Source: Christensenellaceae bacterium
GTDB lineage: Bacteria > Bacillota > Clostridia > Christensenellales > DTU072
Reading direction: 5' to 3'
Assembly: GCA_031259965.1 (NCBI GenBank)
Contig: JAIRKT010000022.1
Coordinates: forward strand, 17,997 to 81,996
DNA: 64,000 bases
Both the position numbers and the translations under genes were made by a program. Positions within the stretch are counted from its first letter, which is position 1; each line of letters begins with the position of its first letter. Below, piece after piece: positions 28,484 through 57,175 of this stretch. The notes below the pieces were generated by a model. The model saw nothing but the letters and a program-made list of their open reading frames with translations, had not been told where the DNA came from and did no database searches.

Positions 28484-29148
28484 TCAGTCACCCTAGGTCT
28501 TATCAAATAGTTCAATGTAAAATAGAATTTAGCGCCTACATATTTTAAATCAGAAAAGGTAGAAGGTGGATAGGTAAAGTCGCCAGCAGTCCATTGTTCG
28601 TATGAATTTTTTGGCAAATAAATTATTTTTAAAGTAAACTCGTTATTTCCATCACGCACAGCATATGGCTCACTATCGCTTAGTCGTGCTACAATATTAG
28701 ATGAATTAATGTAGTATTCGGTTTCGTCATTATCTAACAACCTGAATGTAAAGTAGTTATCACTAACTGATGATGAAATAATATATTTAGAAGTATCAGC
28801 AAGTGTGCCATGTGTCGCTACGAAATTATCTAAATTAATTGATAATGTGCAATTCAAGTTTGAAGTATTACTTACAATGTTTATATTAACCCCGACAAAA
28901 AACGGCGCGTCCTTAGTGCCAGGGCTACCCAGGCCAGTTTCACCCGCATATCCAAGGGACTCAATTAAACTCGAGCTCAAATTAGCGGTTAGAGGTGTTT
29001 GAGAAGTTATAGAGGTGTCACTAGTATCTATTTCTGCGTTTTTATAAAACCAAGCAAAAGATGTCACTAAGGCGGTTGCAATCATAATGATTAATGTGAA
29101 AGGTATTATAAGGTGTTTAAATAGTTCAGCTCTTAAAAATTTGCCCAT
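28480..29148 (-). CDS. Small secreted beta-rich protein with SipW/TasA-class signal motif (222 aa)
   Basis: The ATG immediately follows the giant gene's TAA (TAAATG). The N-terminus is ...IIPFTLIIMIATALVTSFAWFYKN. Confidence 0.72.
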   Translation of the reverse strand: MGKFLRAELFKHLIIPFTLIIMIATALVTSFAWFYKNAEIDTSDTSITSQTPLTANLSSSLIESLGYAGETGLGSPGTKDAPFFVGVNINIVSNTSNLNCTLSINLDNFVATHGTLADTSKYIISSSVSDNYFTFRLLDNDETEYYINSSNIVARLSDSEPYAVRDGNNEFTLKIIYLPKNSYEQWTAGDFTYPPSTFSDLKYVGAKFYFTLNYLIRPRVTE

Positions 29149-39200: not shown

Positions 39201-42200
39201 TTACTACAATATCCTTTTTGTCATAGACTTTAGAGTATGATAAAGTGGAAATTTCTGGATATTCTGCATTAGCTTGTTGTGTTAATGTGGCTATACTGCC
39301 ATTGTCTACTAATTGAACATAGGCTTCTGTATAATACATAGCATGTCCTTTTGGAATAGAAGCTTGGGATTTTGGGAAAAAGACAGGCCATGAGGTTGCG
39401 ACAGCGTCATATATTAAATAGATAGTCCCTCCATTATCAATAGCGGAAAAACAAACATCTTCACCAGAATCCATACTATATGTTGTAAAGATAATACCAT
39501 CTTTGATTGAGTTATATGTGACCCTAGGTGTATAGGAGCTAGCAAGTTTGTTGGTTCCAACGTATATATTATTTATCGCGACTCTTTTGTTGTTGCTTGT
39601 GCTACCAGAGTTAATTGCCACTAAAGTGTCAGCTGTGCCTATCCAGTGCTTGAGGCTACTGGTGCCTACATCTAAAGTGTCGGGTAAATTATAGGTAAAC
39701 ATTTGTACCTGGCCATTTTTGACTTTGGTATCATTAAAGGGATCTTCAACGTTAAACGCGCGAATATATCGTTTAGTTGCGATTGTTGGATTTGTGCTGG
39801 TTCTATAATCTGTATTTATATGATCCAACATGGCTTCAACAAAGGATGTGGAGTCTGGATAAACAGTTGCAATACGTGTATTAAGGCCTTCAGGAACGTA
39901 AATATTTATGGCAACTCCAAAAACGTCGCTGTTATTATTAAAGGTACAACCTTCCATTTTACGTCCAATAAAAAGTCCAGCACCATGGGGTGCATTACCA
40001 TCCATAGAACCAGAAAAACCCTTACTACCAGATCGGTTTGAAAGTATTGTGCCTCTAAAATCGTATATGAATCCATCAAGGTTTAATGTTGAATGTACAC
40101 CACTTTCACCATTGCGCGATAAATTTCCAACTATTCCTCCAGCAAAGGAGACAAGATCTCCATTAGCAACAGTCCATTGATATGCGCCTATTAAACTAGT
40201 GGAGGTTCCTTTTATTTTACAGTCTTTCATATAAACCACAAGAGTATTTGCATAACCTCCTGTTTTAGTAGCCATGATTTCGCCGATAAATCCACCAACG
40301 CGCGACCCAAGTTGCTTTGTGCCAAAAACAGCACCTTCAACCCGAGATTCAGTTGCTGCATATAAGGCTACATTTGATGCCATTTCAAAGGTGCAGTTGA
40401 TGATTGATACTGGTGTGTTATGTAGTTGAGAATCGTTGAGAACTTGACCCACGAACCCACCTAGACTAACACCAACACCGCCTTTACTGTCTGTTACATG
40501 ATTTCCAGCAAAAATAACTGATGCGTTTAATTTAACCTTGACATTTTGAATTACCGAATTATTTCTTGAAAGTCCAGTTACAATACCGAATGTCCAGTTC
40601 ATACCATTGACACCTGCTACATTTCCAAGCATTAGGCTTTTATCTACATTTATAGTTAAATCATAAATTTTACCACCCCTTAGTTGACCTGTAAGCAATC
40701 CATGATATGTGTTGGGATATTCTCCGTTCGAATTGCCTTCGCGCTCTAGGCTAGCCAAAAAATTGCCGGTCTCATATGCGTAGTCTGACCAAGGCTTAGT
40801 TGTTGCTACAGGCCAATCGAGATTATATGATATTGTTTTATTGTTGCCATATAAAGAGCCAGTAAACCAATTTTTTGAACTTGACCAGGCATCATAGTTC
40901 TTAGAATTATTGTCGCTGTAATGTTTATCTTGATGTCTCGCTCCGCCGTATGAGATAGATATTTCATTTGCATTCATTAAAGAGTCGTCTGGGTTTCTGT
41001 TATAACCTTTACCAGTTACCACTATATCATTAGCAAGCACATAAATCCCAGCGTGCAGGCCTCTACTGCTAACATTGTTCCACAGATCTTCCTTAGTTGA
41101 GATTTTTGTAACTACAGCTCCTTGTACAGTCAATTCGGCACAAGAAAGATAGTTATTAGTAGTGCTATGATTACTACCATTACCATCCCAGGTGCTTGTG
41201 GCTCTTAATACGACGTATCGCGCTTTGTAGAGCCTTGAGAATGTGATGGGTGTAGTTATAGTATCACGCCCAAAAAATGCTATTCCATTAGCCGGGTTTA
41301 CGCCTTCGTCAAGCTTAAAAAATTTAGTGTTACCTCTTCCTATATTTAGTAAATCTGAATTACTTACATTTGTCGCTGTCCCACCCATATTTTTATCTAT
41401 ATAAATTTCAAATCGATCAATTGTTCCATTGCTGTAACTGTCTGGACGTCTTGTATATGTTATACCTGATACTAATCTTGTTTCTTTTAAGTCAATAACA
41501 ATATAACTGTTAAAGTCAGTGATACGTGTATCGTTTTTACTTCCTGATTGATTGTGCAGGCCATATTCCGAATCGTTGTATCGAGTTTCCCATGAGCTGT
41601 GGTATATAGTGGAATTATTTCCGTCATTAATATTTGAGGCGTTGTAGTTTCCTTGTTCAGAATCAGGAGCGTATGCCACTGAATAATTGGAATAACCACC
41701 AGAGCCATAATAACTACCAGAAACATCCGCTAAATTATACATATCTGTAGATGTGAGGTCACTGGGTTTATCACTTTCAGTGGAACTCTCAAATTCCCAA
41801 TCCGATATTTTAAGTTCACTGAAACTTAGTTGGTGACTCCACGATATTCCATCGGTGTTTGCTATTACCCTTACATAAACATACCTTGTGTAGATCCTTT
41901 CAAAAGTCATATTAATAATAGGGTATAAGGTTCTAGGAGTTAAGAAGACACTTCCAGTATTGTGTTTTGCTATACTAACCGCTTTTGTGGTGGACATAAA
42001 AAAGGACTCGGGTTGCTGATCTAGGGGCATGCAATTTGTGGCGGCTAAAATTTCTACTTCACCTATTACTTCTAAAGTGCTTGGAGTTATCTGCAGTCTT
42101 GAAATTGGACGGACCGCTCCTAAATCTAAAAGGACATATTTAGTAGCACCACCATATACCATATTATGACTCATATTGGCAATTTTTTGAAATTTGTTAT

Positions 42201-43356: not shown

Positions 43357-43459
43357 TCTAATCCTCCCCCCAGAAGTCGCAACTCATATAATATTTCCTA
43401 ATTATTAAGATTTCGAATAATCAGATCAAACTTATTATTGTTCAATAGACTATCTTTAG

Positions 43460-43488
43460 AGTATAACTTATGTAAAATTCCATGTCAG
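43460..43488 (-). promoter_or_regulatory. Proximal promoter of the 4,735-aa gene
   Basis: On the minus strand: CTGACA (43488-43483), 17-nt spacer, TATACT (43465-43460). It implies a ~95-nt leader. Confidence 0.4.
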
Positions 43489-43603
43489 TATCCAAACATA
43501 TGTCCCCAGAGAAGATATGAATTTCTTAATTTTTGATAAAGAATAAATTGTTAACAAAACTCGCAAGGCACATAGAACAAGGTACATTACTAAATTAATA
43601 AAT

Positions 43604-43625
43604 AAAAGGCGAGCCCCGCTTTTAT
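43604..43625 (-). terminator. Terminator-like hairpin in the divergent intergenic region
   Basis: The minus-strand RNA reads AAAAGCGGGGCUCGCCUUUUAUUUAUU. The stem has 3 G-C and 4 A-U pairs with one bulge. A/T runs on both sides make it potentially bidirectional. Confidence 0.35.
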
Positions 43626-44199
43626 TAAATAAAATATAATACAAAATACGAGAAAATATGCCAAAACTCATGCAGGGCTAGTTTTAGCAATTTGTGCCTA
43701 CAGTAAATAGTAGCATTTTAAAATAATAAAAGAAACAAAAGTAGAAACGCATGTCAAAAAAACTACTAGGCGTTATATGCTAAAGCCTGGGAGGTTTAAG
43801 AGCAATGTAGAAAACCAGATAGTTCAAATTGGTTTAAACGAGTTAAACATCAAAATGAGCATACAAAAGCCTGCATGGCTGTGACACAGCGCGCCTAATT
43901 TTTAAGTCTTAAGCGTTTTGTAAAAACTATAAAAAATTCTAAATCAGCACCTCTTTATCAAAAAAATTTGGAATATTACCAGCTAACGCAGCAACTTGCA
44001 GTGACTTGCCACTAAGCTAGATGGAAAACAAAAACCCTAATTAATTTTTGAACGCATAAAAAACTAAACACGAGACTTTAACATAGTAAGAGCTTAGTAT
44101 TTTAATAAAAATCTATTTAAAGAAAAACAAAAGATTTTCATATCCATATATATAATAACATATTTATATAATAAATTAACAGAGTAAATTTACAATTTT
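43604..44199 (-). ncRNA. Candidate ~0.6-kb non-coding transcript or regulated long leader (hypothetical)
   Basis: It is bounded by the consensus promoter at 44206-44234 and the hairpin at 43604-43625. It contains no ORF with an RBS. A noticeably G+C-richer core lies at ~43740-43900. Confidence 0.25.
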
Positions 44200-44205
44200 A
44201 CCAAA

Positions 44206-44234
44206 ATTATACCATATGGCAATAGTAAAATCAA
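44206..44234 (-). promoter_or_regulatory. Orphan consensus promoter inside the divergent intergenic region
   Basis: On the minus strand: TTGATT (44234-44229), exact 17-nt spacer, TATAAT (44211-44206). The hexamers and spacing are the same as in the promoter of the 4,126-aa gene. Confidence 0.5.
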
Positions 44235-44555
44235 GTTTAGTATATATTTTCAAAGAAAAGTAGTAGTTAAAGAATGATAGACATTTTTCATAACTAATAA
44301 TTTTGAAACTTTTTCGAGCACATATGGCCTTGTTAATGAGCTATGCTTTGATTTTTTTATCTTTCTTATCAAGGGCTGCGCTATAATTAGCCTGCTGAAT
44401 GCTGAGTATATAGTCTTTTTTAGCTAAAATAATAATTTAAATTTTTAGTTGATTATGTGTGTGATAGGTTTTCTGAATTAGTTTGGTTTTTAACTATTTT
44501 AAGATAAAAATAAGTAAAATCGCAGCACGTTCTTAAGACAAATAGCTGCTCTCTC

Positions 44556-44584
44556 TTGATTAAATATTACTTTTAATATATAAT
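44556..44584 (+). promoter_or_regulatory. Promoter of the 4,126-aa surface-protein gene
   Basis: TTGATT (44556-44561), 17-nt spacer, TATAAT (44579-44584). Confidence 0.6.
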
Positions 44585-44596
44585 ATATAATAAATA

Positions 44597-44624
44597 TTTG
44601 CGCACAAAGCGCGTGTTGCGCAAA
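44597..44624 (+). promoter_or_regulatory. GC-rich 5'-UTR hairpin
   Basis: TTTGCGCA (44597-44604) pairs perfectly with TGCGCAAA (44617-44624) around the 12-nt loop CAAAGCGCGTGT. It lies about +7 to +35 from the predicted TSS. Confidence 0.5.
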
Positions 44625-44713
44625 AATTAAGGATTGCACCCTTAAAAAGGTCTTTTTATGCTGTTTAATTGACGTTAAATAAGGTTTTTTTTGGTTGTGT
44701 GCTGGAGTAAGTA

Positions 44714-47700
44714 ATGAGCGATGGTTTATCAAATATAGGTCGTGCTAAATTTTCTGTACGCAGTGCAAGGCATATTGGTATTATTGTCTGTATAGTGTTG
44801 ATAATAGCTTCTGCGATAGTTGCGGCTGTTCTAATATCAAAAGCCGCACCCATAGAGGATCTTCCCGCCAAGAAAATTACGGCCATACTGCCTGAGAACG
44901 ATGCTAGGATAGGTTTGAACGCAAACCTTGACTCTGTCAACGTGCGTGTAGTGTATAGTGATGGGTCGAGCGAAATAAAAACCTTGACTGACTTGTCTGT
45001 AACAGGTCTTGATACAACCAAACCAGGTGAACTTGAGAATGTAGTGCTTAATTTTGGTGGTTTTGTACAGATTGTTTCATATACTGTCATGCCGATTGAA
45101 AAAGTTATAAAATACTTAGCTTTAGAGGGTGGATCAATTGAAGGCGATGCGGAGCAACATGTCCCATCAGGTGGCAGTGCGACATCGGTTAGAGCAAATC
45201 CAGATGAGGGATATAGGTTTGTAGAGTGGTCTGATGGTGTGAAACAAGCGCAACGCACTGATTTAATGGTCTCACAAGACAAACAACTCTCAGCTTCTTT
45301 TGCTAAGTTAAAATACTTAGTTATATTCTACTATCCAAATGGTACGACGGGCCGCGAAAAATATATTGAACATGGCGATCCTGTAATTGACATTCCATCG
45401 GAAGAAAACGACAAGGAAATGCAACTTTATGGATACAAATTTGTAAGCTGGAATGTTGATAATTCAGAAATAAGTCGTGTAACTCGTGAACTTCATATTT
45501 ATCCTCAATACGAAAAATATTCAGCTGATTTCTCATTAGAAATATCAACATCGGCAGACGGGCTGGCACTGGCCTCCACGTCTGGACTTAGAGAATATTA
45601 CACACTAGAAGAAACTGCCTCTTTAACTATAATACCAAATCCAGAGCGCACATTTGTTGGTTTTGAGATTTTGACAGCGGGCAACATCTGGGTTAGCCTT
45701 GCGGCAGCTGACGATAGTGGGCCAAAAACCTCTGCCTATGCTATAGGGAGTTCTAACAACTTAATCACCTTTATATCCTCTAAAAATGGTGTAAGAGATG
45801 AGTATTTATTAACATTTGTACCAACTTCTCAAACAACCTCAATCCAGGTAAGAGCTCGTCTCGTCTACGATACAAGTGAAATCTCCTTTACTTCTATGAG
45901 TTTAGTTGTGCGCTCTCCCATAAATTTAGCGCTAAATCAGACGATAGGCAGTTTCTTTTCAGTTGGATCTAGCTCAGATGAATTGTTTGTAGCGGTTCTT
46001 CCTCCATCCGCTGACGGATATGAATTTCGTGGTTGGTATATAAAGGATGGTGCGGTTAATGATTCGGGTGAGCCAGTTTTAATAACGAATAGTACCACCT
46101 TTGAGCGTCCTACGGAACTTATCGCATACCATGTTAAAAAAGTGTATACTATAACCTTCTCAAAAGGAAATATTCAAGGTACTGTTTTTGCGGAGCGCAG
46201 TATAAAACTATACTGGCAGGAGGTGTTGGGTGGCGCTGGTGAAAACGCCTTCCCTGACGCCATTCCGCAATTAACAAATTACACATTCGTTGGTTGGTAT
46301 AGACTAAACGGTGAAGTGGAAACTGATAATTTTGTAGATAAAACTACTCGAGTTGATGGTGATATGCAACTATATCCCAAATTTCTAGTAAACACTAAAA
46401 AACTCCTAATAGAAGCTGACGGATCTGGTGAAATTACAATCGCAAAAAATGATGGCACTCCAGTTAGTGTTTATGGCAACTATTCACTCGAGGTGAACCA
46501 GAAATACACAATCAAATTCCTTGCAGCTGAGGGTTACATAGTATATAGCTCTGCAATTACATTAGATGACGGTGTTCCTAACACGACCATACAAAACGTA
46601 AGCGAATATACATACGTGATTGGCGCGAATAATACTACAATTATCCACGATTATCGCATAAAAATCACCTTTACTAGGCGATTGCATGAGGCAATGATTT
46701 CTAATGGAGATGGACAAAACAATGGAATTGTTGAGTATGATGATATACTAGAAGGCAATGAAAATGGAAATTATACTCATATTTCATCTGATGATAGTGC
46801 TTTTACAATTAAAATAGCCCATGGTTCTGGTAAAATTTTGTGGATAACCGCAAAAGAGGGTTATTATATTAGCGCAATTACTATAGGCGGGGTGCCTGTA
46901 TCCAATCTCCCAATGACAAGTCAGTATTCTGCAGTTTTGCAAGAAGTATACGGCAATATGAGTGTTGAAATCACATATAGCCCGATAACATTTTCGTCAA
47001 TTATAATTCCATCCACTAATGGGAGTGTTGAAAGAAGCAATCATGGCAGTGCTACACACACATACGGAGATAATCCTGAATTTAGAATTGAAGCGGAAGC
47101 CGGTTATTACATTAGCAAGGTTGTATTAGATGGTGTGGTTGTTAATCCATATCTAACAACAGCTTCATCCTCATATATAATTTCGCACATTGTTGTTTTA
47201 GGCAAAGAATACCAGCCAGTTGAAGGTGTGAATCATGATGAGCGCACTGAGAAATATAATATTCAAGTAATCGGAAGGAGTGTTGATTTCACGATTGAAG
47301 CGGAATTTACACCGATTTATTATAAAATCCAAACCACTACAGAGGGGCTAGGTGAAGCTCGCGCAGCACAGGACCGTGTGGGATTTGGTGGCAGTGTCCT
47401 TATTAATGCATCGACACTAAGTAACTATTATGTCGCGAGTTATCAGGTTAATGATGAATCTCAAATGTTGTTTGGAGATAGTGCACAAAGCACTTCACAA
47501 AGCATAAAACTAGAGAATATAACCGAAGACAAATTAGTTAAAATAATTTTCTCTGGTAAAGTCTATTCAATTTCGTTTATTGGTGCAAACAACATGGCAA
47601 CTGTTGAATTTGTTAGTGCCGCTACTTCCAAACCAGAAACACATAATTTGAATTATACCGCATTAGTAGAAGCTGGAACTACCGCTGAATTTACAATAAA

Positions 47701-50700
47701 ACCAATTCCTGGCACGGTTATTCAGAGTGTAACAGTTGATGGTATCTCAGAGACGATAGGATATAATGTATCATCACATCGCCTGGTATTTACCAATTTA
47801 CGTGATCATCATGAGGTAGAGGTTTTTAATGAGGCACAAAACTTTAAGGTTGCATACTATATCTCAAACATAGTAGAAAATAATGGGAATGAAGATGATA
47901 ATACATTCGCATACTCTCCTGACGCATTAACTTTAATAGACACAGCTAGTTATTTAAATGGATATGCTATTGTAATAAGACCAGGGTTGGGCAGAGATAT
48001 TTCGAATGTAAGTACAATAATAGTTAAAAATTCCGACACAGGAGAAGATATAACTAACACATTAACCATTCAAATCAGTCTTAATGGCGACGACAAAAAA
48101 ATAACAATAACAGGTATCAGATCTAATATTGAATTATTTGTGCCATTAGCTGATACTACTACGAAAGTTCCTCAGGCAAATCCCATTGTTACACTAAAAT
48201 ATGATGAATCCATGGCGACAATTACTTACGATGGGACAGAGTTTAGTGTAATTGATAATAAAACTATAACCGCATCAATTAATACTGAAATTCAGTTTAA
48301 CATAATGCCCATTGGCGATAATATTTTGAAATATGTAACAATTAATGGAGTACATAAGGCGGATGTGCTAGAAGGTGCAACTTCATTCACAATAATTGGT
48401 TTTAATATGACTACAATTATTGATTTTGTGTTTGCGGAAAAGCAGTATACTCTCACAATGGACAAGGAAGGCGCTGGTCTGATATTTGCTGATATTGTGA
48501 GATTCGCAAGCAGACAGGGGATTTATCTTAGCATAATACCTGACGCTGGTTACAGGGTGTCGGAGTTTTCTATAGCTAATATAGTAACAGATTGGGTAGC
48601 TATTGGAAGAAACGATATAATTGATCAGGTAAACAGTGGCAATTACGTTGTGCATCTTGAAAACAATGATACTTTATCTGACATGACAATCAGAGTCAAA
48701 TTTGCGCCACTCACCTATCAGTTGGTAATTACCGCGCCTTCTAGTGATGGAGCGGCTGATGGAACATATGGCGCGCTGGTTGATGCAGGAAATATAATAT
48801 TTGGGAGTCCAATCCCAGTGAGTTATGGCGCGACGTTTACACTAAAACTCGGTGCCGCGGAAAATTGTTTTATAGAGCGTGTTGATCTCATATACAATTA
48901 TTTGAATCCGTTGACAACATTTACCACTTCGATTTATCCAGATGAGTTGATGTCACCTGAAGTTGAAAATTATAGATATACAGGTGGCACGCTAAATTTC
49001 ACAATCACTGGTAATATGAGAGTTGAAATCGTATTTACACCAAATAGGTATACTGCAGCTGTTGTGCAGACTTCAAATGGTTCAGTAGAAATTAGATCAA
49101 GCTCTACAAACACTATATACGAGAAAAATGGTTTAATAACACTATATTCGAACGAATCATTATTTATAAGAATGACAGCAGATAAAGGCTATCATATTGC
49201 AAAACTCTACATTAACGGAACTGAAATTGCACCAGTGCTTTGGAAACTCGACACAATCGATGACAACAATAATAGGATAGTAGAATATATCTACGAGCTT
49301 GATGATTCATCGAATAACTATGCAATTTATGCTGAATTCCAAATAAACAAATACTCTATTCAATATGAGATAATTAATTCAAGTATTAATTATGCCGCAA
49401 ATGATCTTAATGTTTCGCAGTTTGGAACACTGAGGATTGATGGATTGTTGCCTTTGCTCTTAGACGGAAATGGCAAACTAGGCATTTATACAGAGATTGA
49501 TCATGGTGCTGATATAACATTCAGGTTTAGCCCTATTATTTCAAAAGGGTACTATGTATCTAGTTTTATGATTCATTGGACAGATCCAGATGATCCAAAC
49601 ACTTCGCAGGAAAAGCATGAAACACTATTAAATGAAGCTCAGACTGGGTTTTTTACAAGACAAGGGCTTAATGCAAACTTAAGAATAGAAGTTGAATACA
49701 AACGAAGTGTATACGATTTCTCACACGCATTTGCCCCAGATCAAGGCTCTAGCAGTTTTACAAGCAACGGATCGATGACGATTACATTTACTAATCCATA
49801 TACTGGACAACCCATAGATGTAGGTTCTCAGATCGAATATGGTACCTCGTATAATGTTTCAGTAAAACCCGGCGTTGGCTATTATTTATCCTCATTTTTA
49901 GTTAACAATCAAGAGATGTTATCATCTGTCTACTCATTAATGTATTTTGGAGATGTTAGAACAAATGTTGTTTTGAACGCTATATACAAAATAAATACTT
50001 ATGAGGTTGTTTTCTTATCAAATTCAGCTGGTGGGTACGTTGAAGTCTTTACAACAGACGAAAATGTACAAGCAATAGATGGGAATCCCGCACTAATATG
50101 GTCTAACAATCCAGAATACAATTTAAAACTCGAAGAAGAAATAATAACGAATTCTGGAGTTATTTATGTTTACTCGAACTATATTACAGTAACTCATAAT
50201 ACAGAGTTAAAAATAGTATCTATTCCGAACGCATCTCAGGGTTATCAGGTTGGAGAGGTTGCGGTGAATGGCGTGCCTAAATCGATAAACACAACGCCTG
50301 GATCTGAATATATGTTTGTTCAAAGGGTTGAAGAAACTAGTTCAACCCAAAAAATGGAAGTTAATACGGCATTTGTGTTAAGGCGTTTAAAGGTAAATTT
50401 AGTAGCACAAGATTTGGTATTAGCATGTGATAATTTTAACGCAATGTCACCATCAGAAGTTGATTATGGAGGTAACTCAAGTTCACCTGCTAATGCGAGA
50501 TTGCGCACAGGCTATAGTGTTGGTGCCATCGCAATATTGCGTGGTAATGAAACCTTCAGCTATAGTAGTTCACAATTAGAACTAATAAATACAACACGAC
50601 TGATAGAATTACGAATCGATAATATTTACGACGAAATAACTGTCACAATTACCTTTAAAAGAGACGCATACGATATTACATTCTCTGGTGACTATAATAA

Positions 50701-53700
50701 AGAATATGATATAGGGCATGGGATCTCTCAAAACTCTTTGTCAATAGCTGGTGTTTTAATTGCTAATAGAATTGCCAGTTTCTCAAGTAATATTAGTGAG
50801 ACACATCCTTTGTATAGTGCTGTAGCGCCAGCTGAAATTGAAATTTTTAGTAACAACACCGTACAGGGGATAACAGAATACAATGATAGCATAATCGTTT
50901 ATATTATGCCAGTCGATGGCTATCATGTTGCCTCTATACTAATCAAAATGGTAAATAGCATCCAGACAGAAAATATTAATGATTTTGAATATTCAACGCT
51001 TGGTGGTTATTATTCTTTCTTTATACCGGCAGTAACAGGAGAACTGACGATTGATGTTCAATATGAAATTAATAGTTATGCAGTAATCTTTAATATGCCG
51101 CAAAATGGGAGTTTAACTGACGGTTATATTACTACAATAAAACATCATGAATTGTTGAATTTAAAATATACAGCAAATGCTGGATATCATTTAACGGCAC
51201 TTAGAGTTAATGGATTTACAGTTTATACAAACTATGAAATAAAACATAACGATAATGGCACAGTTTCGTATATTTACAGCACATCGGGTTATTATATATC
51301 GGACTCTGCATTAAAAGAAATAAGGGTTGACGCGCTTTTTGAATTGAATATATTTAATGTGTCAATTTATGTTAATGGTGTCGACGCCTCATCGGTTAAT
51401 CCTGATAGCACTCTTATCCCTGTATTAAATAATACTACAGGCAAATTAACTTATGGGTCACTAGCCACAATCATACAAAACAAGGCTGAAGGGTATAGTA
51501 TAACAAATATAGTTTTGGCCAATGCCTTGCTAAATCCTGACTGGCAGACAAGTGACGGTCAATTTGCAAGCAGTTATGGTTTGAATGCGTTTGAGTTTTT
51601 AGTTAGCAGATTCTCTAGCGAATTAGATTTTCATAATCCAGCTGTAAACACTTTATACATACTATATGCTACTGAATTAGATAAACATACTCCATTAATA
51701 ACAACATATTTATACGAAACCGGCAAAGAATATGATGACGTTCCAACATATGAAGATAGTTTGGGTGCAACAAAGAAAATATTTGATTTAGAGGTTTCAT
51801 ACAATACATCTCCTAGTGGAGGAAAATATAGCTATTTCACAAGGGCCACTTATCTATTAACACTAAATGAAGATGTTAATTATTATTTTGCAGGTTTTCA
51901 AGAATTGAAAAATGGAAGCTGGGTTTATTGCACTGACGGATCAGACGGCGTACAATTAACACAGGGTGGATATATGCTACAGTATCAAACGACGAGCTCA
52001 AGATCGTTTAGAGCAGTGGTGTATAGAATATATACTATTGAAGTAAGGGTTTATCCTGACTACAAATATACAGGTGGTTCATACACAGTTACCTCTTCTA
52101 CTACTACATATAGGTTATACACCACAATTACGACAGTAGCTAGATTTACTAATGAAAATAGACCAAATTTGGCGGGCAACTCCTTATCATATTCGCCTGT
52201 TGATGAAGATTTTGATCTAAAGAACGGAGTAGGGATTTACAGAGTATATAGTGGTGCTACTTTAACTGTACAAGTTGTAGATACTCTCGGGAATGTTGCA
52301 AACAATGATACAAAGGGCTACAAATATTATTATGTAGAGAGAACTGAGGATGACAAGCCTATTAGTCAAACTCTAACTAACAAATTAACGGTTAGTTCGG
52401 GCGGTGACACTGTAGTTGGGGACAAACTAATTCATATTTATGCTGAAAACCAGGTCAAACTAAGTGTTGGCGTCCTAACAGAGGGATCATCTACAGGCTC
52501 TGAAGGTGGCACGGTAAATTATTTTAATGAATTTGATGCGCGTATCTATTTAGATAATACCACCTCATTATCTGTAACGCCAAATTCAAAAATAAGAATA
52601 GAAATAATACCAAATAACAATTTTAGATTTGACAATATTTCATTCAAAAATGCGCTAGCAATACCTGGAGCTAACGATACAAAACGATTTGACGAAACGT
52701 GGACCACTGTCGCTGATCATACTATGAATACAGGGTATGAAAATAGGATTTTTAATGTAGCAATCACTTATGTGGGTACTAGAATCACTAAAGTTACAGT
52801 TACCATTCATGCAATAGAGAACATGATATTTAATATCAAATTCTGGAAGCAAATAAATGTAGTTGCGGAGGCGCGTTTATTCTCTAATACTGAATCTGTC
52901 TCTACTTCAATAGATGCTTCCCTAAAAGCTAAAATAACAAATGCATTAGAAGTTACACCTGGCATATACAATTATGGTGATGAAGTTAAAATTACAATAG
53001 ATTATAATGATTTGTTGGTTGCTAATGAGTGGAATGCACAGTATCGATTTATCGGTTTTTATATTAACGGAATAAACACATATGAAAGACTAGGGCAGGG
53101 ATTCCCATCTGAAGCTGATTTTGTAAAGACTATAAAACTTGATTCATCAATTCCAATAGTGGGAGGAACTACTACAGAGTATACAGTTTCTATAGTTGCA
53201 ATGTTTGTGCCTGTACTGAATTTTTATATAGAAAATTCGGCTGATATGAGCGTTGAAGAATATCAAGAGAAGTTTGATTTTGGCAATGTATCGGTTGAGA
53301 CTTATGAGTATTCAAGTGCCAGACCACAATATTTTACAACTACTTCAATTATAAAATCATACGCAATATCAGATTCATCATACACTAAAGTGTTGAGGGC
53401 CATGTCTAGAATTAATGGACTTAGTGGTCAGGACATGAGTTCAGCTACTAGTGAATATAATGTTTTCAACACTAACATGTTAACATTAACATGGGTTGAT
53501 GCCTCACAGGTGCTTAGCACTGGCTTGCTCTATTCTGATATGTTCTTGTTTATGAGTTGGCAGGTGTATGATGTTAAACAAGGTGCATGGGTTGATTTGA
53601 CATATGAGGATTCAACTAATCCAAATAACCGGCCTACTTCTACGGTCTATTCTCTGCCTCTCAGTGTGTTGCTAGCGTATTCATATCTGGGTGCTAGTGA

Positions 53701-56700
53701 TCAAGATATGATTAAGTATATACAAGGGGTTGACATTTCTGGATCTGGTACTATACAAGATATACCAGTTATTAAGATAAGACCATATTATAGACGAAAA
53801 GAAGTTGTTACAATAATACCTGAAGTATGCTATGACAATCCTACGATACCCAACCCAGAGCGTTCATCAGAGGTATCAGCATATATAGTAGGTATAAATC
53901 AGCCTACTGCACAGTTTATATATGGAGATGTTATAACTCTAAATCATGGTTTAGCTAAAAACTCACAATACGCTTTTAAAGGTTGGTACTTGCAAGGTGA
54001 TACGAGCCCTATTCCAGATGAAGGGATGACTCTAGAGCAATTTGAAAACAATAAAGAGATAGGCTATGCGATTATAGCCAACACTAATCTTTTGGCTGTT
54101 AGGATGAACGATACTCGCGTATTTACACCCGTATACGTCAAGCAATGGGTTATTACCATAAAAACAATGAATCTCTCTGCGAGCCTTGGGTCTAGTTATG
54201 TTCAAAACAGCACTCTGAGTTTATCAGAGATAGATAATGAAGGTAAAACAAATGACTCGTCACGGCTCATTCAAATAACAATGGAAGCCGGCACAGAGGT
54301 TAAGTTTGGATTTGTAACACCTACAGATTCATATTATGATGCTAAGTACGATAAATATATCGCATCATACTTAACCGTTGATGGTATAGTATCGCCTATT
54401 AGTGTTTTTTCGTCTGAATCTGCTGCGTCAAATTCTGTCGCCTGCATAATCGATCAAAATAAAAATATACCCACCTCAACAGCGGGTGATCAAAGCAAAT
54501 TGTTGTATGATGATGGAAATGGTCCATATTTTAAGGTTATAGCTGATAGTGCAAAGGTTATAGAAGTGCAATTTAAAATATTTGGTGAAATTGAGATAAG
54601 AAATGTGTATGCTAAGTCGACATTGATAATTCCTGAATCACTAGCAGAAGCACTCGCCGTTTCCTCTGGTTATGTAGACACGTATATAGTTGACGATGGC
54701 GAACGCGATGAACTTAAAGATCAAGTAGGTGTGATTGGAATTAAAAATATACCAATTGAACCTAGCAAGCCATATAACGAATATTTAGACACAGATGAAG
54801 GTGCTGTCTCTGGGTTTGGAAATAGCATATCAACCCCAAATGGCACAACAATAGAGATAAGGTTTAAAACACTAAATCAAACCTTTTTGAATATGAGTGG
54901 AGATGCGCTAAACGGTATCACGTATGCCAAGAAACAAATATTTGCCTTCTATTCTGGTGGTGGACAACTTGGAGCCTCTGGACATGAAGAGCCATTTGCG
55001 GACGCATTTTCTACCAATGCTGGTGATGGTACAGAAAACAAGCCATTCTTAATAGCAAACGCGCGGCATATGGAATTTGTTAATTCTTTGTACATCGCAT
55101 CAGCTGATCAGCCACAATTTTATTCATTAGCAGGCATATATTTTAAGCTAAAAAATTCTATTAATTTAGCTGGTGCTTTAATAAATGGCATTGCTTCAGA
55201 TGGTAGGGGATTTGACGCAAACTTTGATGGTGATGGCTATTCACTAAACAATTGGAATAGAAGTGATTCCTATTCGGATAATGTTGGTATATTCGCGCAA
55301 CTAGCGCCTGGTTCTATCATAAAAAACTTGTTTGTAGGTGGAACAGTTAGTTTAATTGAGGGAAAATCAAACGTTGGATATTTGGCTGGTCTTGCAAACG
55401 GTGCTACACTTACAAACATAGGAACAGCTACTGCTGCTAACTCCCAAAAGAATGTAGCGGGGATCAATAATGTTGGTGGTTTGATTGGTGCAGCTTATGA
55501 TACGACAATAATAGGATTTGACGGTAATGGTGCTTCTTCTGAAAAAATAGCGGGTGATTATGGAATATTAATGTCATTCTTTGTGTCAGGTTATTATAAC
55601 ATAGGTGGGGTTGTTGGTTTAATAGGCCCTGGAAGTACCATGGCTAATATAGAAATGCGAAACCCATCGATTTATATTGAAACTGAGTATGGTAATTCTA
55701 ATTCAGGAAGAGGCGGCGGCGGTGTAGTTGGTAGTGTAATCACTAGTGACATAGGCGATTCAAAAGTTGGTTTAGAAAATATTACTGTATATGCACCTGA
55801 AGTTGGACCACAGGGTAGTGATAGTGTTTATGTTGGTGGCATTGTTGGTTTGAATGAAGGACGACAATTAAAGAACCTAAAAGTTAAAGGAGTTGTTAAT
55901 ATCAACTCAAAATTCTCTACAAACGGAGCTACTGATTTTACTGGTTTTGCTGTACAAGAGCAGACAATCATTGGTAACAATAGTGGTGTGCCTGGATTTG
56001 GCGGTGGTGGGATTGTAGGATATAATAAGTCATACTTTATAAACGGCGCACTACGTTTTACTGCCTCCATAGATGGAGCTGAATATGACGGAGATTCCGC
56101 AATAACACACACCTTATCAGGATCTGTAATGGGTGGTGTTATTGGCATAAATGGCAGAGGAAGCGAATTAAGAAATGCTAAGACAGCAAGTAATAAATTC
56201 GAAACTACAAGGTCAACTCGAGTTGGTGGTATATTTGGTGTTATTGTAGGATATAATGCGGGTGGTATTTATTCTGCTGAAGCAGTAACTACTAAATGGC
56301 AACCAAACAAGGATAACACCGGAACCGCCACACAAGCTAGTTATGATACAACTTCAGGACAAAACATAACATATCTTGTAAAATCCACAGATTCAGTTTA
56401 TGTTTATGTTAACGCTGATACTAGTGTTCTTACTAACGTTAACCAATACAAAAGTGGACCTGATCCAACTACAATATTCCTTGGAGGAATTGCAGGATAC
56501 AATTCTGCAAATGGTAAAATAGAGGATTCAAAATTTAAAGGCAAATTAATGACTAATAGATTGTATTCACGTGAAGTTGTTAGTTACACGTATGTAGGTG
56601 GTATTGCTGGTGTTGTAGAGTCAGCCTATCAGTCAATAAAAAATTGTACCGTTACTGACTCTGCGTTGTTTACTTATTCAATGATTTGGGTTGATGCGGA

Positions 56701-57094
56701 TAGCAATATGACATCTGAAACTGGGCTGGGCGGCATAACTGGATACACCTCGGATTTTGGTAGTTTCTATGATAATAGTGCAACAAATTCAGAATTAGGA
56801 ATCATGTGCTTTGGTAATGGTTCTGAATATAACGATTGGCCTCTACCCGCATTGATCAGTGTTCCATCTGGCAATGGCAGCGTTAAAAATTCTGGTAACG
56901 CTAAAGTCACGGCTTACCACTTAACCTCTAATAACAATACGGAATCAGGGATTGGTTATGAAACGCATAGAACAGACAAAGGAATCCCAGGTGATATTCG
57001 CAATGGCTCTTATTCACTAGTATTTGTGGTATATTATCGTTATACTGGTTTTTATAGAAATATTAATATAGATAAGCAAAATGTGACAGGTTAG
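44714..57094 (+). CDS. Giant surface protein: N-terminal signal-anchor, InlB-B-repeat-type modules, C-terminal GLUG region (4,126 aa)
   Basis: ATG with a GGAG RBS 6 nt upstream. N-terminal TM (IGIIVCIVLIIASAIVAAVLI). The 12.4-kb frame is uninterrupted. There is no C-terminal TM or LPXTG. Confidence 0.92.
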   Translation: MSDGLSNIGRAKFSVRSARHIGIIVCIVLIIASAIVAAVLISKAAPIEDLPAKKITAILPENDARIGLNANLDSVNVRVVYSDGSSEIKTLTDLSVTGLDTTKPGELENVVLNFGGFVQIVSYTVMPIEKVIKYLALEGGSIEGDAEQHVPSGGSATSVRANPDEGYRFVEWSDGVKQAQRTDLMVSQDKQLSASFAKLKYLVIFYYPNGTTGREKYIEHGDPVIDIPSEENDKEMQLYGYKFVSWNVDNSEISRVTRELHIYPQYEKYSADFSLEISTSADGLALASTSGLREYYTLEETASLTIIPNPERTFVGFEILTAGNIWVSLAAADDSGPKTSAYAIGSSNNLITFISSKNGVRDEYLLTFVPTSQTTSIQVRARLVYDTSEISFTSMSLVVRSPINLALNQTIGSFFSVGSSSDELFVAVLPPSADGYEFRGWYIKDGAVNDSGEPVLITNSTTFERPTELIAYHVKKVYTITFSKGNIQGTVFAERSIKLYWQEVLGGAGENAFPDAIPQLTNYTFVGWYRLNGEVETDNFVDKTTRVDGDMQLYPKFLVNTKKLLIEADGSGEITIAKNDGTPVSVYGNYSLEVNQKYTIKFLAAEGYIVYSSAITLDDGVPNTTIQNVSEYTYVIGANNTTIIHDYRIKITFTRRLHEAMISNGDGQNNGIVEYDDILEGNENGNYTHISSDDSAFTIKIAHGSGKILWITAKEGYYISAITIGGVPVSNLPMTSQYSAVLQEVYGNMSVEITYSPITFSSIIIPSTNGSVERSNHGSATHTYGDNPEFRIEAEAGYYISKVVLDGVVVNPYLTTASSSYIISHIVVLGKEYQPVEGVNHDERTEKYNIQVIGRSVDFTIEAEFTPIYYKIQTTTEGLGEARAAQDRVGFGGSVLINASTLSNYYVASYQVNDESQMLFGDSAQSTSQSIKLENITEDKLVKIIFSGKVYSISFIGANNMATVEFVSAATSKPETHNLNYTALVEAGTTAEFTIKPIPGTVIQSVTVDGISETIGYNVSSHRLVFTNLRDHHEVEVFNEAQNFKVAYYISNIVENNGNEDDNTFAYSPDALTLIDTASYLNGYAIVIRPGLGRDISNVSTIIVKNSDTGEDITNTLTIQISLNGDDKKITITGIRSNIELFVPLADTTTKVPQANPIVTLKYDESMATITYDGTEFSVIDNKTITASINTEIQFNIMPIGDNILKYVTINGVHKADVLEGATSFTIIGFNMTTIIDFVFAEKQYTLTMDKEGAGLIFADIVRFASRQGIYLSIIPDAGYRVSEFSIANIVTDWVAIGRNDIIDQVNSGNYVVHLENNDTLSDMTIRVKFAPLTYQLVITAPSSDGAADGTYGALVDAGNIIFGSPIPVSYGATFTLKLGAAENCFIERVDLIYNYLNPLTTFTTSIYPDELMSPEVENYRYTGGTLNFTITGNMRVEIVFTPNRYTAAVVQTSNGSVEIRSSSTNTIYEKNGLITLYSNESLFIRMTADKGYHIAKLYINGTEIAPVLWKLDTIDDNNNRIVEYIYELDDSSNNYAIYAEFQINKYSIQYEIINSSINYAANDLNVSQFGTLRIDGLLPLLLDGNGKLGIYTEIDHGADITFRFSPIISKGYYVSSFMIHWTDPDDPNTSQEKHETLLNEAQTGFFTRQGLNANLRIEVEYKRSVYDFSHAFAPDQGSSSFTSNGSMTITFTNPYTGQPIDVGSQIEYGTSYNVSVKPGVGYYLSSFLVNNQEMLSSVYSLMYFGDVRTNVVLNAIYKINTYEVVFLSNSAGGYVEVFTTDENVQAIDGNPALIWSNNPEYNLKLEEEIITNSGVIYVYSNYITVTHNTELKIVSIPNASQGYQVGEVAVNGVPKSINTTPGSEYMFVQRVEETSSTQKMEVNTAFVLRRLKVNLVAQDLVLACDNFNAMSPSEVDYGGNSSSPANARLRTGYSVGAIAILRGNETFSYSSSQLELINTTRLIELRIDNIYDEITVTITFKRDAYDITFSGDYNKEYDIGHGISQNSLSIAGVLIANRIASFSSNISETHPLYSAVAPAEIEIFSNNTVQGITEYNDSIIVYIMPVDGYHVASILIKMVNSIQTENINDFEYSTLGGYYSFFIPAVTGELTIDVQYEINSYAVIFNMPQNGSLTDGYITTIKHHELLNLKYTANAGYHLTALRVNGFTVYTNYEIKHNDNGTVSYIYSTSGYYISDSALKEIRVDALFELNIFNVSIYVNGVDASSVNPDSTLIPVLNNTTGKLTYGSLATIIQNKAEGYSITNIVLANALLNPDWQTSDGQFASSYGLNAFEFLVSRFSSELDFHNPAVNTLYILYATELDKHTPLITTYLYETGKEYDDVPTYEDSLGATKKIFDLEVSYNTSPSGGKYSYFTRATYLLTLNEDVNYYFAGFQELKNGSWVYCTDGSDGVQLTQGGYMLQYQTTSSRSFRAVVYRIYTIEVRVYPDYKYTGGSYTVTSSTTTYRLYTTITTVARFTNENRPNLAGNSLSYSPVDEDFDLKNGVGIYRVYSGATLTVQVVDTLGNVANNDTKGYKYYYVERTEDDKPISQTLTNKLTVSSGGDTVVGDKLIHIYAENQVKLSVGVLTEGSSTGSEGGTVNYFNEFDARIYLDNTTSLSVTPNSKIRIEIIPNNNFRFDNISFKNALAIPGANDTKRFDETWTTVADHTMNTGYENRIFNVAITYVGTRITKVTVTIHAIENMIFNIKFWKQINVVAEARLFSNTESVSTSIDASLKAKITNALEVTPGIYNYGDEVKITIDYNDLLVANEWNAQYRFIGFYINGINTYERLGQGFPSEADFVKTIKLDSSIPIVGGTTTEYTVSIVAMFVPVLNFYIENSADMSVEEYQEKFDFGNVSVETYEYSSARPQYFTTTSIIKSYAISDSSYTKVLRAMSRINGLSGQDMSSATSEYNVFNTNMLTLTWVDASQVLSTGLLYSDMFLFMSWQVYDVKQGAWVDLTYEDSTNPNNRPTSTVYSLPLSVLLAYSYLGASDQDMIKYIQGVDISGSGTIQDIPVIKIRPYYRRKEVVTIIPEVCYDNPTIPNPERSSEVSAYIVGINQPTAQFIYGDVITLNHGLAKNSQYAFKGWYLQGDTSPIPDEGMTLEQFENNKEIGYAIIANTNLLAVRMNDTRVFTPVYVKQWVITIKTMNLSASLGSSYVQNSTLSLSEIDNEGKTNDSSRLIQITMEAGTEVKFGFVTPTDSYYDAKYDKYIASYLTVDGIVSPISVFSSESAASNSVACIIDQNKNIPTSTAGDQSKLLYDDGNGPYFKVIADSAKVIEVQFKIFGEIEIRNVYAKSTLIIPESLAEALAVSSGYVDTYIVDDGERDELKDQVGVIGIKNIPIEPSKPYNEYLDTDEGAVSGFGNSISTPNGTTIEIRFKTLNQTFLNMSGDALNGITYAKKQIFAFYSGGGQLGASGHEEPFADAFSTNAGDGTENKPFLIANARHMEFVNSLYIASADQPQFYSLAGIYFKLKNSINLAGALINGIASDGRGFDANFDGDGYSLNNWNRSDSYSDNVGIFAQLAPGSIIKNLFVGGTVSLIEGKSNVGYLAGLANGATLTNIGTATAANSQKNVAGINNVGGLIGAAYDTTIIGFDGNGASSEKIAGDYGILMSFFVSGYYNIGGVVGLIGPGSTMANIEMRNPSIYIETEYGNSNSGRGGGGVVGSVITSDIGDSKVGLENITVYAPEVGPQGSDSVYVGGIVGLNEGRQLKNLKVKGVVNINSKFSTNGATDFTGFAVQEQTIIGNNSGVPGFGGGGIVGYNKSYFINGALRFTASIDGAEYDGDSAITHTLSGSVMGGVIGINGRGSELRNAKTASNKFETTRSTRVGGIFGVIVGYNAGGIYSAEAVTTKWQPNKDNTGTATQASYDTTSGQNITYLVKSTDSVYVYVNADTSVLTNVNQYKSGPDPTTIFLGGIAGYNSANGKIEDSKFKGKLMTNRLYSREVVSYTYVGGIAGVVESAYQSIKNCTVTDSALFTYSMIWVDADSNMTSETGLGGITGYTSDFGSFYDNSATNSELGIMCFGNGSEYNDWPLPALISVPSGNGSVKNSGNAKVTAYHLTSNNNTESGIGYETHRTDKGIPGDIRNGSYSLVFVVYYRYTGFYRNINIDKQNVTG
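45090..54100 (+). repeat. Long series of Listeria-Bacteroides / divergent InlB B-repeat-like modules (approximate bounds)
   Basis: Canonical copies are DEGYRFVEWSDG, LYGYKFVSWNVD, ADGYEFRGWYIKDG, LTNYTFVGWYRLNG, QYRFIGFYINGIN and QYAFKGWYLQGD. There are also many ~85-95-aa modules with an (A/E/D)-x-GY-(Y/H/R)-(I/V)-x(3)-(I/V)-x-(V/I)-(N/D)G motif, such as KEGYYISAITIGGV, EAGYYISKVVLDGV, DKGYHIAKLYINGT and NAGYHLTALRVNGF. Confidence 0.6.
55030..57094 (+). other. C-terminal GLUG-motif region (~690 aa)
   Basis: GDGTENKPFLIANARHMEFVN...FDGDGYSLNNW...GIFAQL is followed by at least 10 G-x-(I/V)-(G/V)G-type repeats. Examples are NVGGLIGAAY, YNIGGVVGLIG, GGGGVVGSV, VYVGGIVGLNEG, GGGGIVGYN, MGGVIGINGRG, RVGGIFGVIVGYN, FLGGIAGYNS, YVGGIAGVVE and GLGGITGYT. 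Confidence 0.6.
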
Positions 57095-57130
57095 TAAATT
57101 AAGTTGCAATAAACTATATACTAAATTGTG

Positions 57131-57175
57131 GCGCGCTAGCTTTTAATTATATTAAGATGCTAGCGCGCTTTGTCG
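57131..57175 (+). terminator. Terminator of the 4,126-aa gene
   Basis: GCGCGCTAGC (57131-57140) pairs perfectly with GCTAGCGCGC (57159-57168) around an 18-nt AT loop, followed by TTTGTCG. It lies 37 nt after the stop. Confidence 0.7.

Follow-up and report, generated by a model that had tools for sequence, protein, structure and literature searches.

The gene at positions 44714–57094 on the forward strand of the window (the whole 64 kb stretch of DNA that was analysed) is a real, conserved open reading frame of 4126 residues. Judged from its sequence, the product, here called G3, is likely to be an adhesin-like surface protein of giant size and fibrillar form, with an N-terminal anchor, a stalk and a variable ligand-binding head; among the adhesin-like giants that are common in gut anaerobes it would be a large but rather typical case. 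It is identical to MDR0751187.1 from a Christensenellaceae MAG, which already carries the NCBI name 'InlB B-repeat-containing protein'. The features referred to below are as follows.

29797–30243, reverse strand: GLUG entry module of the neighbouring giant G2 (residues 4372–4520 of 4735); hmmsearch with an external GLUG-entry profile, E = 1.1e-18.
44704–44707, forward strand: Shine–Dalgarno-like GGAG, 6 nt 5′ of the G3 ATG (44714), read from the sequence.
44714–57094, forward strand: G3 gene, encoding the 4126-residue giant; ATG start, product MDR0751187.1, collinear orthologues P0004 and P0005.
44714–44848, forward strand: putative N-terminal signal-anchor region of G3, a basic n-region and then a 21-residue hydrophobic helix (residues 21–41, nt 44774–44836).
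44873–45103, forward strand: M0 (residues 54–130), β-rich, membrane-proximal and highly conserved, with 83% and 66% identity to the two orthologues.
45104–46384, forward strand: M1–M5 (residues 131–557), canonical InlB B-repeat/Flg_new/Flg_new_2 type; Pfam, hhalign and PDB profile match.
46385–51679, forward strand: M6–M22 (residues 558–2322), 17 divergent modules of ~90–135 residues, 'GY-h-x-s-h-x-h-(N/D)-G' family; leave-one-out HMM and hhalign.
51680–52447, forward strand: M23–M24 (residues 2323–2578), β-rich; no Pfam or profile match.
52448–52849, forward strand: M25 (residues 2579–2712), last member of the central family; leave-one-out HMM E = 6e-4, hhalign P = 2e-4.
52850–54868, forward strand: M26–M30 (residues 2713–3385), two with Flg_new-like Y-x-F-x-G-(F/W)-Y motifs; sequence and weak profile scores.
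54869–55033, forward strand: Gly/Ser/Ala-rich linker (residues 3386–3440), read from the sequence; no profile match.
55034–55684, forward strand: GLUG entry module (residues 3441–3657), motif P-F-x-I...Y-F-K-L-x-N-S-I-N-L...F-D-G-x-G-Y and the first GLUG turns; widely conserved.
55685–56749, forward strand: extended GLUG-turn region (residues 3658–4012), further vGGhxG turns at a spacing of 31–86 residues.
56750–57091, forward strand: C-terminal tail (residues 4013–4126) with no GLUG turns; pLDDT <50, 13% invariant positions.
57130–57169, forward strand: GC-rich hairpin with an 11 bp stem and an 18 nt loop, 36 nt 3′ of the G3 stop, read from the sequence.

That so long a frame, of MAG origin and a singleton in clustering at 90% identity, might be an assembly artefact (repeats collapsed or wrongly joined) or a pseudogene in decay is hardly credible. 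Tandem DNA repeats were looked for in the gene and none was found; the sole direct repeat has two copies of 26 nt with 77% identity, and the paralogous modules are only 8–31% identical to one another. Collinear proteins of 4098–4126 residues without stops occur in three independent assemblies, that of G3 included. Both orthologues, P0004 (4104 residues, 61.6% identity) and P0005 (4098 residues, 42.5% identity), are full-length, every module is kept and gaps amount to at most 19 residues in any module and mostly to 0–2; relatives of G3 are present in four species-level genomes. A misassembly of repeats, which an earlier sequence-only reading of this DNA had named as the outcome that would overturn its account, is excluded because these two orthologues, at 62% and 43% identity with hardly any indels, come from independent assemblies; together with the absence of DNA repeats, they also rule out a pseudogene. 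The hairpin downstream of the stop is a possible terminator for G3, with a weak T-tract, and was not called by a consensus terminator scan.

A hydropathy scan showed a single hydrophobic segment in G3, near the N-terminus (residues 13–48), and no C-terminal transmembrane or hydrophobic segment; no LPXTG-type motif was found near the C-terminus in a motif scan. The N-terminal signal-anchor read from the sequence is thus the only candidate anchor, and G3 as a sortase substrate is ruled out by the missing LPXTG. Only 8 of the 4126 residues are cysteines. Past the hydrophobic stretch there is an SKA↓AP-like site that satisfies the −3/−1 rule, and no further anchoring signal was found in G3, both of which would suit a cleaved signal peptide and a giant that is released or only loosely associated with the wall, as a secreted matrix or aggregation factor. 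We consider this quite improbable: the hydrophobic core of 21 residues is long for a signal peptide and the most conserved modules of G3 are the membrane-proximal ones. An uncleaved anchor is favoured because P0005 has IPRLAP where G3 has the putative cleavage site.

The canonical repeats that had been read near the N-terminus are borne out by Pfam, by TIGR02543 (27.7 bits against a cut-off of 20.95) and by a crystal structure. Flg_new (PF09479) matches residues 478–554 with 38.4 bits (cut-off 27) and Flg_new_2 (PF18998) matches residues 133–198 with 32.7 bits when G3 is scanned entire and 42.4 bits when M1 is scanned by itself (cut-off 23.6); the orthologues resemble G3 in their Flg_new_2 matching. 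These are the only two modules above the Pfam threshold in the whole of G3, with M1, M2, M4 and M28 falling below the Flg_new cut-off (E of 0.001–0.05). With hhalign, M1–M5 align to external Flg_new_2 domains with P values from 2e-29 to 3e-5, and a profile of M1, M2 and M5 with two external domains matches the InlB B-repeat crystal structure 2y5p_A (E = 1.6e-6). M0 has no Pfam match and was negative in hhalign.

The divergent modules with a GY(Y/H/R)(I/V)...(V/I)(N/D)G signature, also proposed from the sequence, are recovered by leave-one-out HMMs as a self-consistent family of 14 to 19 modules of ~100 residues within residues 558–2712 (E from 6e-4 to 9e-15). Their assignment to the InlB B-repeats fails by Pfam alone and holds with deeper profiles. 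None of 14 central modules matches Pfam, and when 30 G3 modules were scanned singly at E ≤ 10 Flg_new_2 appeared in two, neither of them central. The central-module HMM nevertheless finds, in the unrelated protein P0047, the Flg_new_2 domain that Pfam defines there (E = 4.4e-4), and in register, at residues 303–356 against residues 302–370 for Pfam; it does likewise in P0031. Aligned with 35 external Flg_new_2 domains in hhalign, the family gives a probability of 87.7 and a P value of 3.4e-6 over 50 columns, compared with P values of 0.69 for YDG repeats, 0.039 for MBG repeats, 0.066 for the reversed control and 0.22 or weaker for column-shuffled controls. Per module, M6–M22 give P values of 5e-9 to 2e-3, and three modules, M6, M13 and M17, act as bridges, with matches to the central as well as to the Flg_new_2 profile. 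With profiles of only 14 and 5 sequences the hhalign P value was 0.12, short of significance, which came only when the orthologues and the 35 external domains were added. A reverse HMM from 2–3 external Flg_new_2 seeds, too thin a seed, detected no central modules, and the central-module profile gave no matches in a word-index search and no meaningful match to PDB sequences. An AlphaFold2 (AF2) model of M15 (pLDDT 81) is an all-β domain of nine strands, and the β-grasp fold of the InlB B-repeat was not among the matches when the central-module model was used in a structure search. The profile comparisons thus support a relationship of the central modules to Flg_new_2, although they are invisible to Pfam.

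Further along the stalk the evidence thins. Canonical repeats had been read around nt 53040 and 53960, where the Flg_new-like motifs of M26–M30 lie (nt 53024–53098 and 53912–54001); the support is weak, with an hhalign P value of 7.7e-4 against Flg_new_2 for the first (M26) and a sub-threshold Pfam Flg_new E value of 0.027 for the second (M28). Residues 2713–3440 have no meaningful match to PDB sequences, and residues 2771–2795 are almost invariant across the three orthologues. In all, ~930 residues of the stalk (M23–M24 and M26–M30) have essentially no family match in Pfam and profile searches, and could conceal another activity. The 'dozens' of modules in the sequence-only reading amount to ~30, 19–24 of them supported as InlB-B type, and its description of the protein as built almost entirely of such modules was an overstatement, the supported share being ~56% of residues. 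G3 is nonetheless a case of an annotation blind spot: standard Pfam sees <5% of it, whereas profile–profile work recognizes more than half as derived from InlB-B.

The C-terminal part begins with the entry motif and continues with at least ten GLUG turns, as had been proposed. The vGGhxG pattern has 11 matches in residues 3554–4005, where shuffled sequences (n = 2000) give 0.15 ± 0.40, and none in residues 1–3440; an additional variant, NVGIFAQ at ~3523, brings the total to 11–12 turns. An external GLUG profile (178 external segments plus the orthologues) aligns to residues 3441–3657 over 217 positions with 250 bits. Pfam Glug (PF07581) itself remains sub-threshold on G3 (12.3 bits against 20.5, E = 0.24), so that the GLUG cap is supported by transitive homology and motif statistics, with moderate evidence for the fold. 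Of 105 library matches to the C-terminal region, ~100 cover the entry module only, and 12 of 13 relatives of this module that were scanned carry PF07581 and/or PF05342 (Peptidase_M26_N), some below the curated cut-off; beyond it, in residues 3658–4012, the matches come from the orthologues only. Homology of the first ~200 residues of the G3 C-terminus to Glug/Peptidase_M26_N-bearing proteins is thus supported at the sequence level. The extent of ~690 residues given for the GLUG region holds to residue ~4012; the last ~114 residues have no turns and show the lowest conservation, apart from a YY-x-Y-x-G-x-YRN motif at the very end with Y/Y/R invariant in the orthologue alignment.

The structure prediction proposed for nt 55030–57094 gave a β-helix-like model with a mean pLDDT of 56, in which model residues ~70–420 are at 70–90 with short strands. 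Foldseek gave no match to this model at E ≤ 1e-3. The matches listed are all parallel β-helices except for the AlbG pentapeptide-repeat solenoid, with a best E value of 0.02 and TM scores of ≤0.23. Two adhesins, Ag43 and PfbA, are among them, and the highest probability (0.98, with E above 1e-3) belongs to IgA1 protease. A PDB sequence search with the C-terminal profile found no meaningful match, and no IgA1 protease sequence. With moderate confidence, residues 3441–4012 are predicted to form a β-helix, the distal part being a lineage-specific continuation. Pfam shows no Peptidase_M26_C in G3, and the absence of HExxH from the whole protein rules out an IgA1-protease-like enzyme.

Both G2 and G3, whose genes have a 1.36 kb spacer in common, carry a C-terminal GLUG region, as the entry-module match in G2 confirms. 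The suggestion that this is a shared functional tip, or a surface for a common partner, finds no support: the two heads are 30% identical over 66 residues in pairwise comparison (E = 3e-4), so the match stays within the generic family core and a head specific to G2 and G3 is rejected. The gene of the distant orthologue has no adjoining G2-like gene, and conservation runs the other way from that expected of a conserved tip, with the membrane-proximal 560 residues best conserved, the head least conserved and the number of modules fixed.

If G3 is the anchored surface fibre that we favour, it would leave the cytoplasm via Sec and stay attached to the cytoplasmic membrane through its uncleaved N-terminal signal-anchor. 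The stalk would consist of ~30 tandem β-rich modules (five canonical InlB-B/Flg_new, ~18 divergent and Flg_new_2-derived and ~8 without a family match) with a probable length of the order of 100 nm, and would carry at its far end, clear of the cell, a presumably exposed C-terminal right-handed β-helix of ~12 GLUG turns. This head, the fastest-evolving part, would bind an external ligand, for example a glycan or protein that belongs to another microbe or to host material, and the well conserved membrane-proximal 560 residues would contact the cell's own envelope. Flg_new proteins are regarded as adhesin-like proteins of gut-associated microbes and an adhesion role has been proposed for GLUG membrane proteins (PMC9723798); tandem β-grasp and Ig-like domains project functional domains off the cell surface (PMC12415215). 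More tentatively, the central ~100-residue modules may be an undescribed family that arose from the Flg_new_2/InlB-B core by strand insertion (an Ig-like sandwich) and acts as a fixed 'molecular ruler' stalk, with the 12-turn GLUG helix as a specificity head for attachment to a host surface or a syntrophic microbe.

Two other functions have to be weighed against this. The β-helix could be an enzyme on a stalk (a polysaccharide lyase, hydrolase or epimerase) that degrades extracellular glycans: the top Foldseek matches are glycan-active β-helices (the fucoidan lyase FdlA, phage tailspikes, polygalacturonases and AlgG) and there is an α-amylase gene in the window. Those matches are not significant, however, and no CAZyme or lyase family was matched by sequence in Pfam, NCBIfam or the PDB. 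The sequence relatives are of the Glug/M26_N type, of which the solved example, the N-terminal domain of IgA1 protease, is a β-helix that contacts the substrate and is non-catalytic (PMC7695701), and poor conservation would be unusual in the scaffold of an active site; an enzymatic head is thus unlikely. G3 might instead be a structural coat or spacer with no specific ligand, forming a dense fibrillar layer that sets the distance of the surface or shields it from phage, predators or host factors. The strict retention of module number and total length among orthologues of 42–62% identity, the weakly conserved head and the three giants with differing repeat types that fill 37 of the 64 kb would agree with this, but the GLUG entry module is common to many smaller secreted or adhesin-like proteins and a specialized terminal domain suggests a specific function, which makes a pure coat rather unlikely.

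Among known systems, G3 is closest in its stalk to the InlB B-repeat proteins (PF09479, PF18998), among them the adhesin-like ones of gut methanogens and Firmicutes, for which the same stalk or adhesin-like role has been proposed (PMC9723798, PMC12415215); M1–M5 meet the family models and match the InlB crystal sequence, and the central family is related to Flg_new_2 by profile. It differs in size, as eight Flg_new/Flg_new_2 proteins from an N-terminal search have 283–861 residues, and in its central modules, which at ~100 residues exceed the 65–73 of InlB B-repeats and have extra sequence inserted after the GY...G strand, ahead of the last one, and for which neither Pfam nor the nine-strand AF2 model points to the B-repeat. 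The head resembles the N-terminal domain of the Streptococcus pneumoniae IgA1 protease (PDB entries 6xjb and 7uvl), a GLUG/Peptidase_M26_N β-helix, in that its entry motif and first turns are homologous to PF07581/PF05342 proteins. G3 lacks the M26 catalytic domain, HExxH and the G5 domain; its predicted helix is about twice as long (~570 residues, 12 turns, with the distal 350 residues lineage-specific) and would cap the free C-terminal end of a stalk instead of adjoining a protease. Periscope proteins and sortase-anchored adhesins of the SasG/Aap type share the concept of tandem β-rich domains that project a functional domain (PMC12415215). The polarity of G3 is the reverse of the SasG/Aap type, with an N-terminal membrane anchor, a C-terminal head and no LPXTG, and in contrast to periscope proteins, whose tandem DNA repeats are almost identical and vary in copy number between strains, its repeats are divergent and their number is fixed between orthologues; a conserved base, variable head and fixed module number set it apart from such variable-length stalks.

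In uncultured gut anaerobes, the main determinants of physical contact with hosts and other microbes that have yet to be explored are giant adhesin-like proteins. For G3 the outcome is a useful refinement of annotation and a candidate new Pfam sub-family, and no new kind of system; should the tentative ruler-stalk and specificity-head reading be true, the locus would offer a handle on the aggregation of an uncultured Christensenellaceae lineage. The domain vocabulary of G3 is also that of small LRR_5 (BspA-type), Flg_new_2 and Glug proteins (P0047, P0031, P0002 and P0110–P0115), which have 580–860 residues, 1–3 repeats and often an N-terminal GLUG, compared with ~30 modules and a C-terminal GLUG in G3. 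Many smaller proteins combine Flg_new, Flg_new_2 and Glug.

The ORF of G3, the giant under study, lies at 44714-57094 (+, ATG start, 4126 aa) in the ORF listing, exactly where the sequence-only reading had placed it, and the identical protein is recorded at NCBI (MDR0751187.1, ‘MAG: InlB B-repeat-containing protein [Christensenellaceae bacterium]’) as the single member of its 90% cluster, on an 84 kb contig. The gene is flanked by:

GGAG, + strand, 6 nt upstream of the ATG
GC-rich hairpin, + strand, 36 nt 3' of the stop

The possibility that the ORF is a misassembly of repeats had been raised with the original observation. Tandem Repeats Finder found no tandem DNA repeats in G3, its sole direct repeat at the DNA level is a 26-nt match due to chance, and chunked self-BLAST turned up no more than five internal protein matches, all weak (24-34% identity), which argues against misassembly. 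Among 1.84 billion representatives searched exhaustively with HMMER, two proteins are full-length orthologues, collinear with G3 from end to end: P0004, of 4104 aa and 61.6% identity, and P0005, of 4098 aa and 42.5% identity; as they come from independent assemblies and tandem DNA repeats are absent, an artefact is excluded. Relatives were found in four species-level genomes (three Christensenellaceae MAGs and one ‘Clostridia bacterium’).

Pfam gives G3 one match each to the InlB B-repeat families Flg_new (aa 478-554) and Flg_new_2 (aa 133-198), and NCBIfam gives TIGR02543. When 30 hand-delimited modules (aa 131-3385) were scanned singly at E <= 10, Flg_new touched five and Flg_new_2 two of the 30; at face value, the Pfam scan would refute the claim of a protein built almost entirely of InlB-B-type modules. 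The canonical modules match the InlB B-repeat crystal sequence 2y5p (E = 1.6e-6). A self-iterated HMM converges on ~15 copies of an ~80-100-aa unit at aa 547-2652 (leave-one-out E-values of 6e-4 to 9e-15), with the consensus Y-x-h-x-h...N-G-x-h...G...h-x-I-x-P..G-Y-x-h-x-s-h-x-I-N-G...Y...h-x-h-x-F.

A first hhalign of this central family against Flg_new_2, using thin profiles, was not significant (P = 0.12). After both orthologues were added, the enlarged HMM (42 sequences) matched aa 303-356 of the smaller, unrelated protein P0047 (E = 4.4e-4), in register with its Pfam Flg_new_2 domain (302-370), and likewise P0031, another smaller protein with Flg_new_2. Against 35 external Flg_new_2 domains, hhalign gave a probability of 87.7 and P = 3.4e-6 over 50 columns. 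The aligned stretch runs from the G-Y core to the last strand, h-x-h-x-F, and the G3 modules have ~13 residues inserted in it. Control targets gave P = 0.69 (YDG repeats of the giant G2), 0.039 (MBG repeats of the giant G1), 0.066 (reversed) and 0.22 or weaker (30 column-shuffled). Per-module hhalign assigned the modules, numbered from the N-terminus, as follows:

M1-M5, Flg_new_2-type, P = 2e-29 to 3e-5
M6-M22 and M25, central family, P = 5e-9 to 2e-3
M6, M13, M17, M20 and M21, matching both profiles

M0, M23, M24, M26-M28, M30 and the linker were assigned to neither profile. InlB-B origin is supported for about 56% of residues, and about 930 aa have no match in Pfam, the PDB or internal profiles. 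The domain interpretation names the right kind of module but claims too much of the protein for it. Genuine Y-x-F-x-G-(F/W)-Y motifs are present at the ‘canonical’ repeats proposed at nt 53040 and 53960, but these repeats are weakly supported (hhalign P = 7.7e-4 and Pfam E = 0.027, respectively).

For M15, AF2 run on an alignment of its 13 paralogues gives a nine-stranded model that lacks helices (pLDDT 81, pTM 0.72); its only Foldseek matches in the PDB are Ig-like and weak (TM 0.46, E = 0.5), without the InlB B-repeat fold among them. Identity is 8-31% between paralogous modules and 29-85% between orthologous ones, so the array is old and has not been homogenised. No module gain or loss separates G3 from its orthologues. 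The membrane-proximal modules M0-M2 are best conserved (83-85% identity to P0004, 61-72% to P0005); in the head (aa 3441-4126) identity falls from 61%/48% to 43%/29%, and only 13% of positions in aa 4001-4100 are invariant. Outside the N-terminal 560 aa, only one island stays almost unchanged in three orthologues that elsewhere share 42-62% identity: NEWNAQYRFIGFYINGINTYERLGQ in M26 (aa 2771-2795, window 53024-53098).

A ~690-aa GLUG cap with at least ten glycine turns had been proposed. The vGGhxG pattern occurs 11 times at aa 3554-4005, 31-86 aa apart (0.15 +/- 0.40 in 2000 shuffles of the region), and nowhere in aa 1-3440. Pfam Glug is sub-threshold (12.3 bits versus 20.5, E = 0.24). Exhaustive HMMER with the C-terminal region gave 105 hits: only the orthologues cover all 687 aa, and for nearly all of the other ~100 the match is confined to the first ~150-290 aa. 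Twelve of the 13 partial-match proteins that were scanned have Pfam Glug and/or Peptidase_M26_N, in some cases sub-threshold, overlapping or adjoining the match to G3 where positions were tabulated. A profile of 178 GLUG-entry segments, to which the orthologues contributed, scores 250 bits over aa 3441-3657. The turns and the homology together support a GLUG cap at the sequence level, although the last ~114 aa are something else. At the C-terminal end (window 57069-57091) is an aromatic motif, YY-x-Y-x-G-x-YRN, with Y, Y and R invariant in all five C-terminal sequences within a poorly conserved tail.

The AF2 model of the head (five sequences) has a mean pLDDT of 56, with the short-strand pattern of a solenoid at residues ~70-420 (pLDDT 70-90) and the last ~140 residues unmodelled. 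Apart from the pentapeptide-repeat solenoid AlbG, every Foldseek PDB hit listed is a parallel beta-helix, with fucoidan lyase FdlA, tailspikes, Ag43, PfbA and polygalacturonases among them and none at E <= 1e-3. The highest probability (0.98, again not at E <= 1e-3) is for the Streptococcus pneumoniae IgA1 protease, the N-terminal domain of which is a solved beta-helix (PMC7695701). A beta-helix fold is probable for the head. With enzymes among these hits, the head may itself be an enzyme; HExxH is absent from G3.

The only hydrophobic helix is N-terminal (21 residues, after a basic n-region), and hydropathy and motif scans found no further anchor, in agreement with the signal-anchor originally described; LPXTG is absent and there are only eight cysteines. 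A cleavage-like site follows the helix, so G3 may, less probably, be cleaved and released, but P0005 does not keep the site. The lone helix, the unconserved site and the absence of another anchor point to a fibril anchored in the membrane at its N-terminus. G3 is best read as such a fibril, in which ~30 modules would hold a beta-helix head outward and the variable head would be the ligand-binding end; exposure at the surface, the length of the stalk and binding are all inferred. Less probably, it would be a non-specific coat or spacer. The original observation was largely right. The name that G3 already has at NCBI is that of its family, and its domains are common ones, found together elsewhere too. 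G3 is unusually large for its kind; of some minor interest are a Flg_new_2-derived module family invisible to Pfam, the fixed module count, and the conserved base with a variable head.

The GLUG-entry profile also matches G2, strongly at aa 4372-4520 (E = 1.1e-18) and with a weak second hit at aa 817-987 (E = 0.0016), but not G1, so both divergently transcribed giants do carry near-C-terminal GLUG modules, as described. The further suggestion of a shared tip or common partner is unsupported: the modules share 30% identity over 66 aa (E = 3e-4), a likeness confined to the generic family core, and around the more distant orthologue (L003) the neighbouring genes differ and none is G2-like. The extreme C-terminus of G2 has another, truncated GLUG entry-like motif. 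The window also holds:

32-2776, 3619-4815 and 7702-8646, +, ORFs of 914, 398 and 314 aa upstream of G1, no Pfam match
5632-7302, alpha-amylase gene among these ORFs
8990-19657, +, G1, 3555 aa, nine MBG_3 stretches and YDG domains
29149-43356, -, G2, 4735 aa, TTG start, 18 YDG stretches and an F5/8 type C domain
43357-44713, G2-G3 divergent spacer, 1.36 kb, no ORF > 77 aa
57444-62486, +, HTH-cupin regulator and PotA-like ABC transporter, 3' of G3

Promoter-like hexamers in the spacer are no commoner than in shuffles. G1 has a hydrophobic segment at its N-terminus and a TM helix with a basic tail at its C-terminus. Three co-directional ORFs follow each of G1 (19641-23255, +; the first overlaps the G1 stop) and G2 (27096-29148, -); Pfam has a match for only one of the six, the last after G2, a BspA-type LRR_5 protein. 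All six are possible accessory genes, and no comparable ORFs follow G3. The transporter comprises an ATPase, two permeases and a binding protein, and its synteny, with the regulator, is kept in two related MAGs (L001 and L002).
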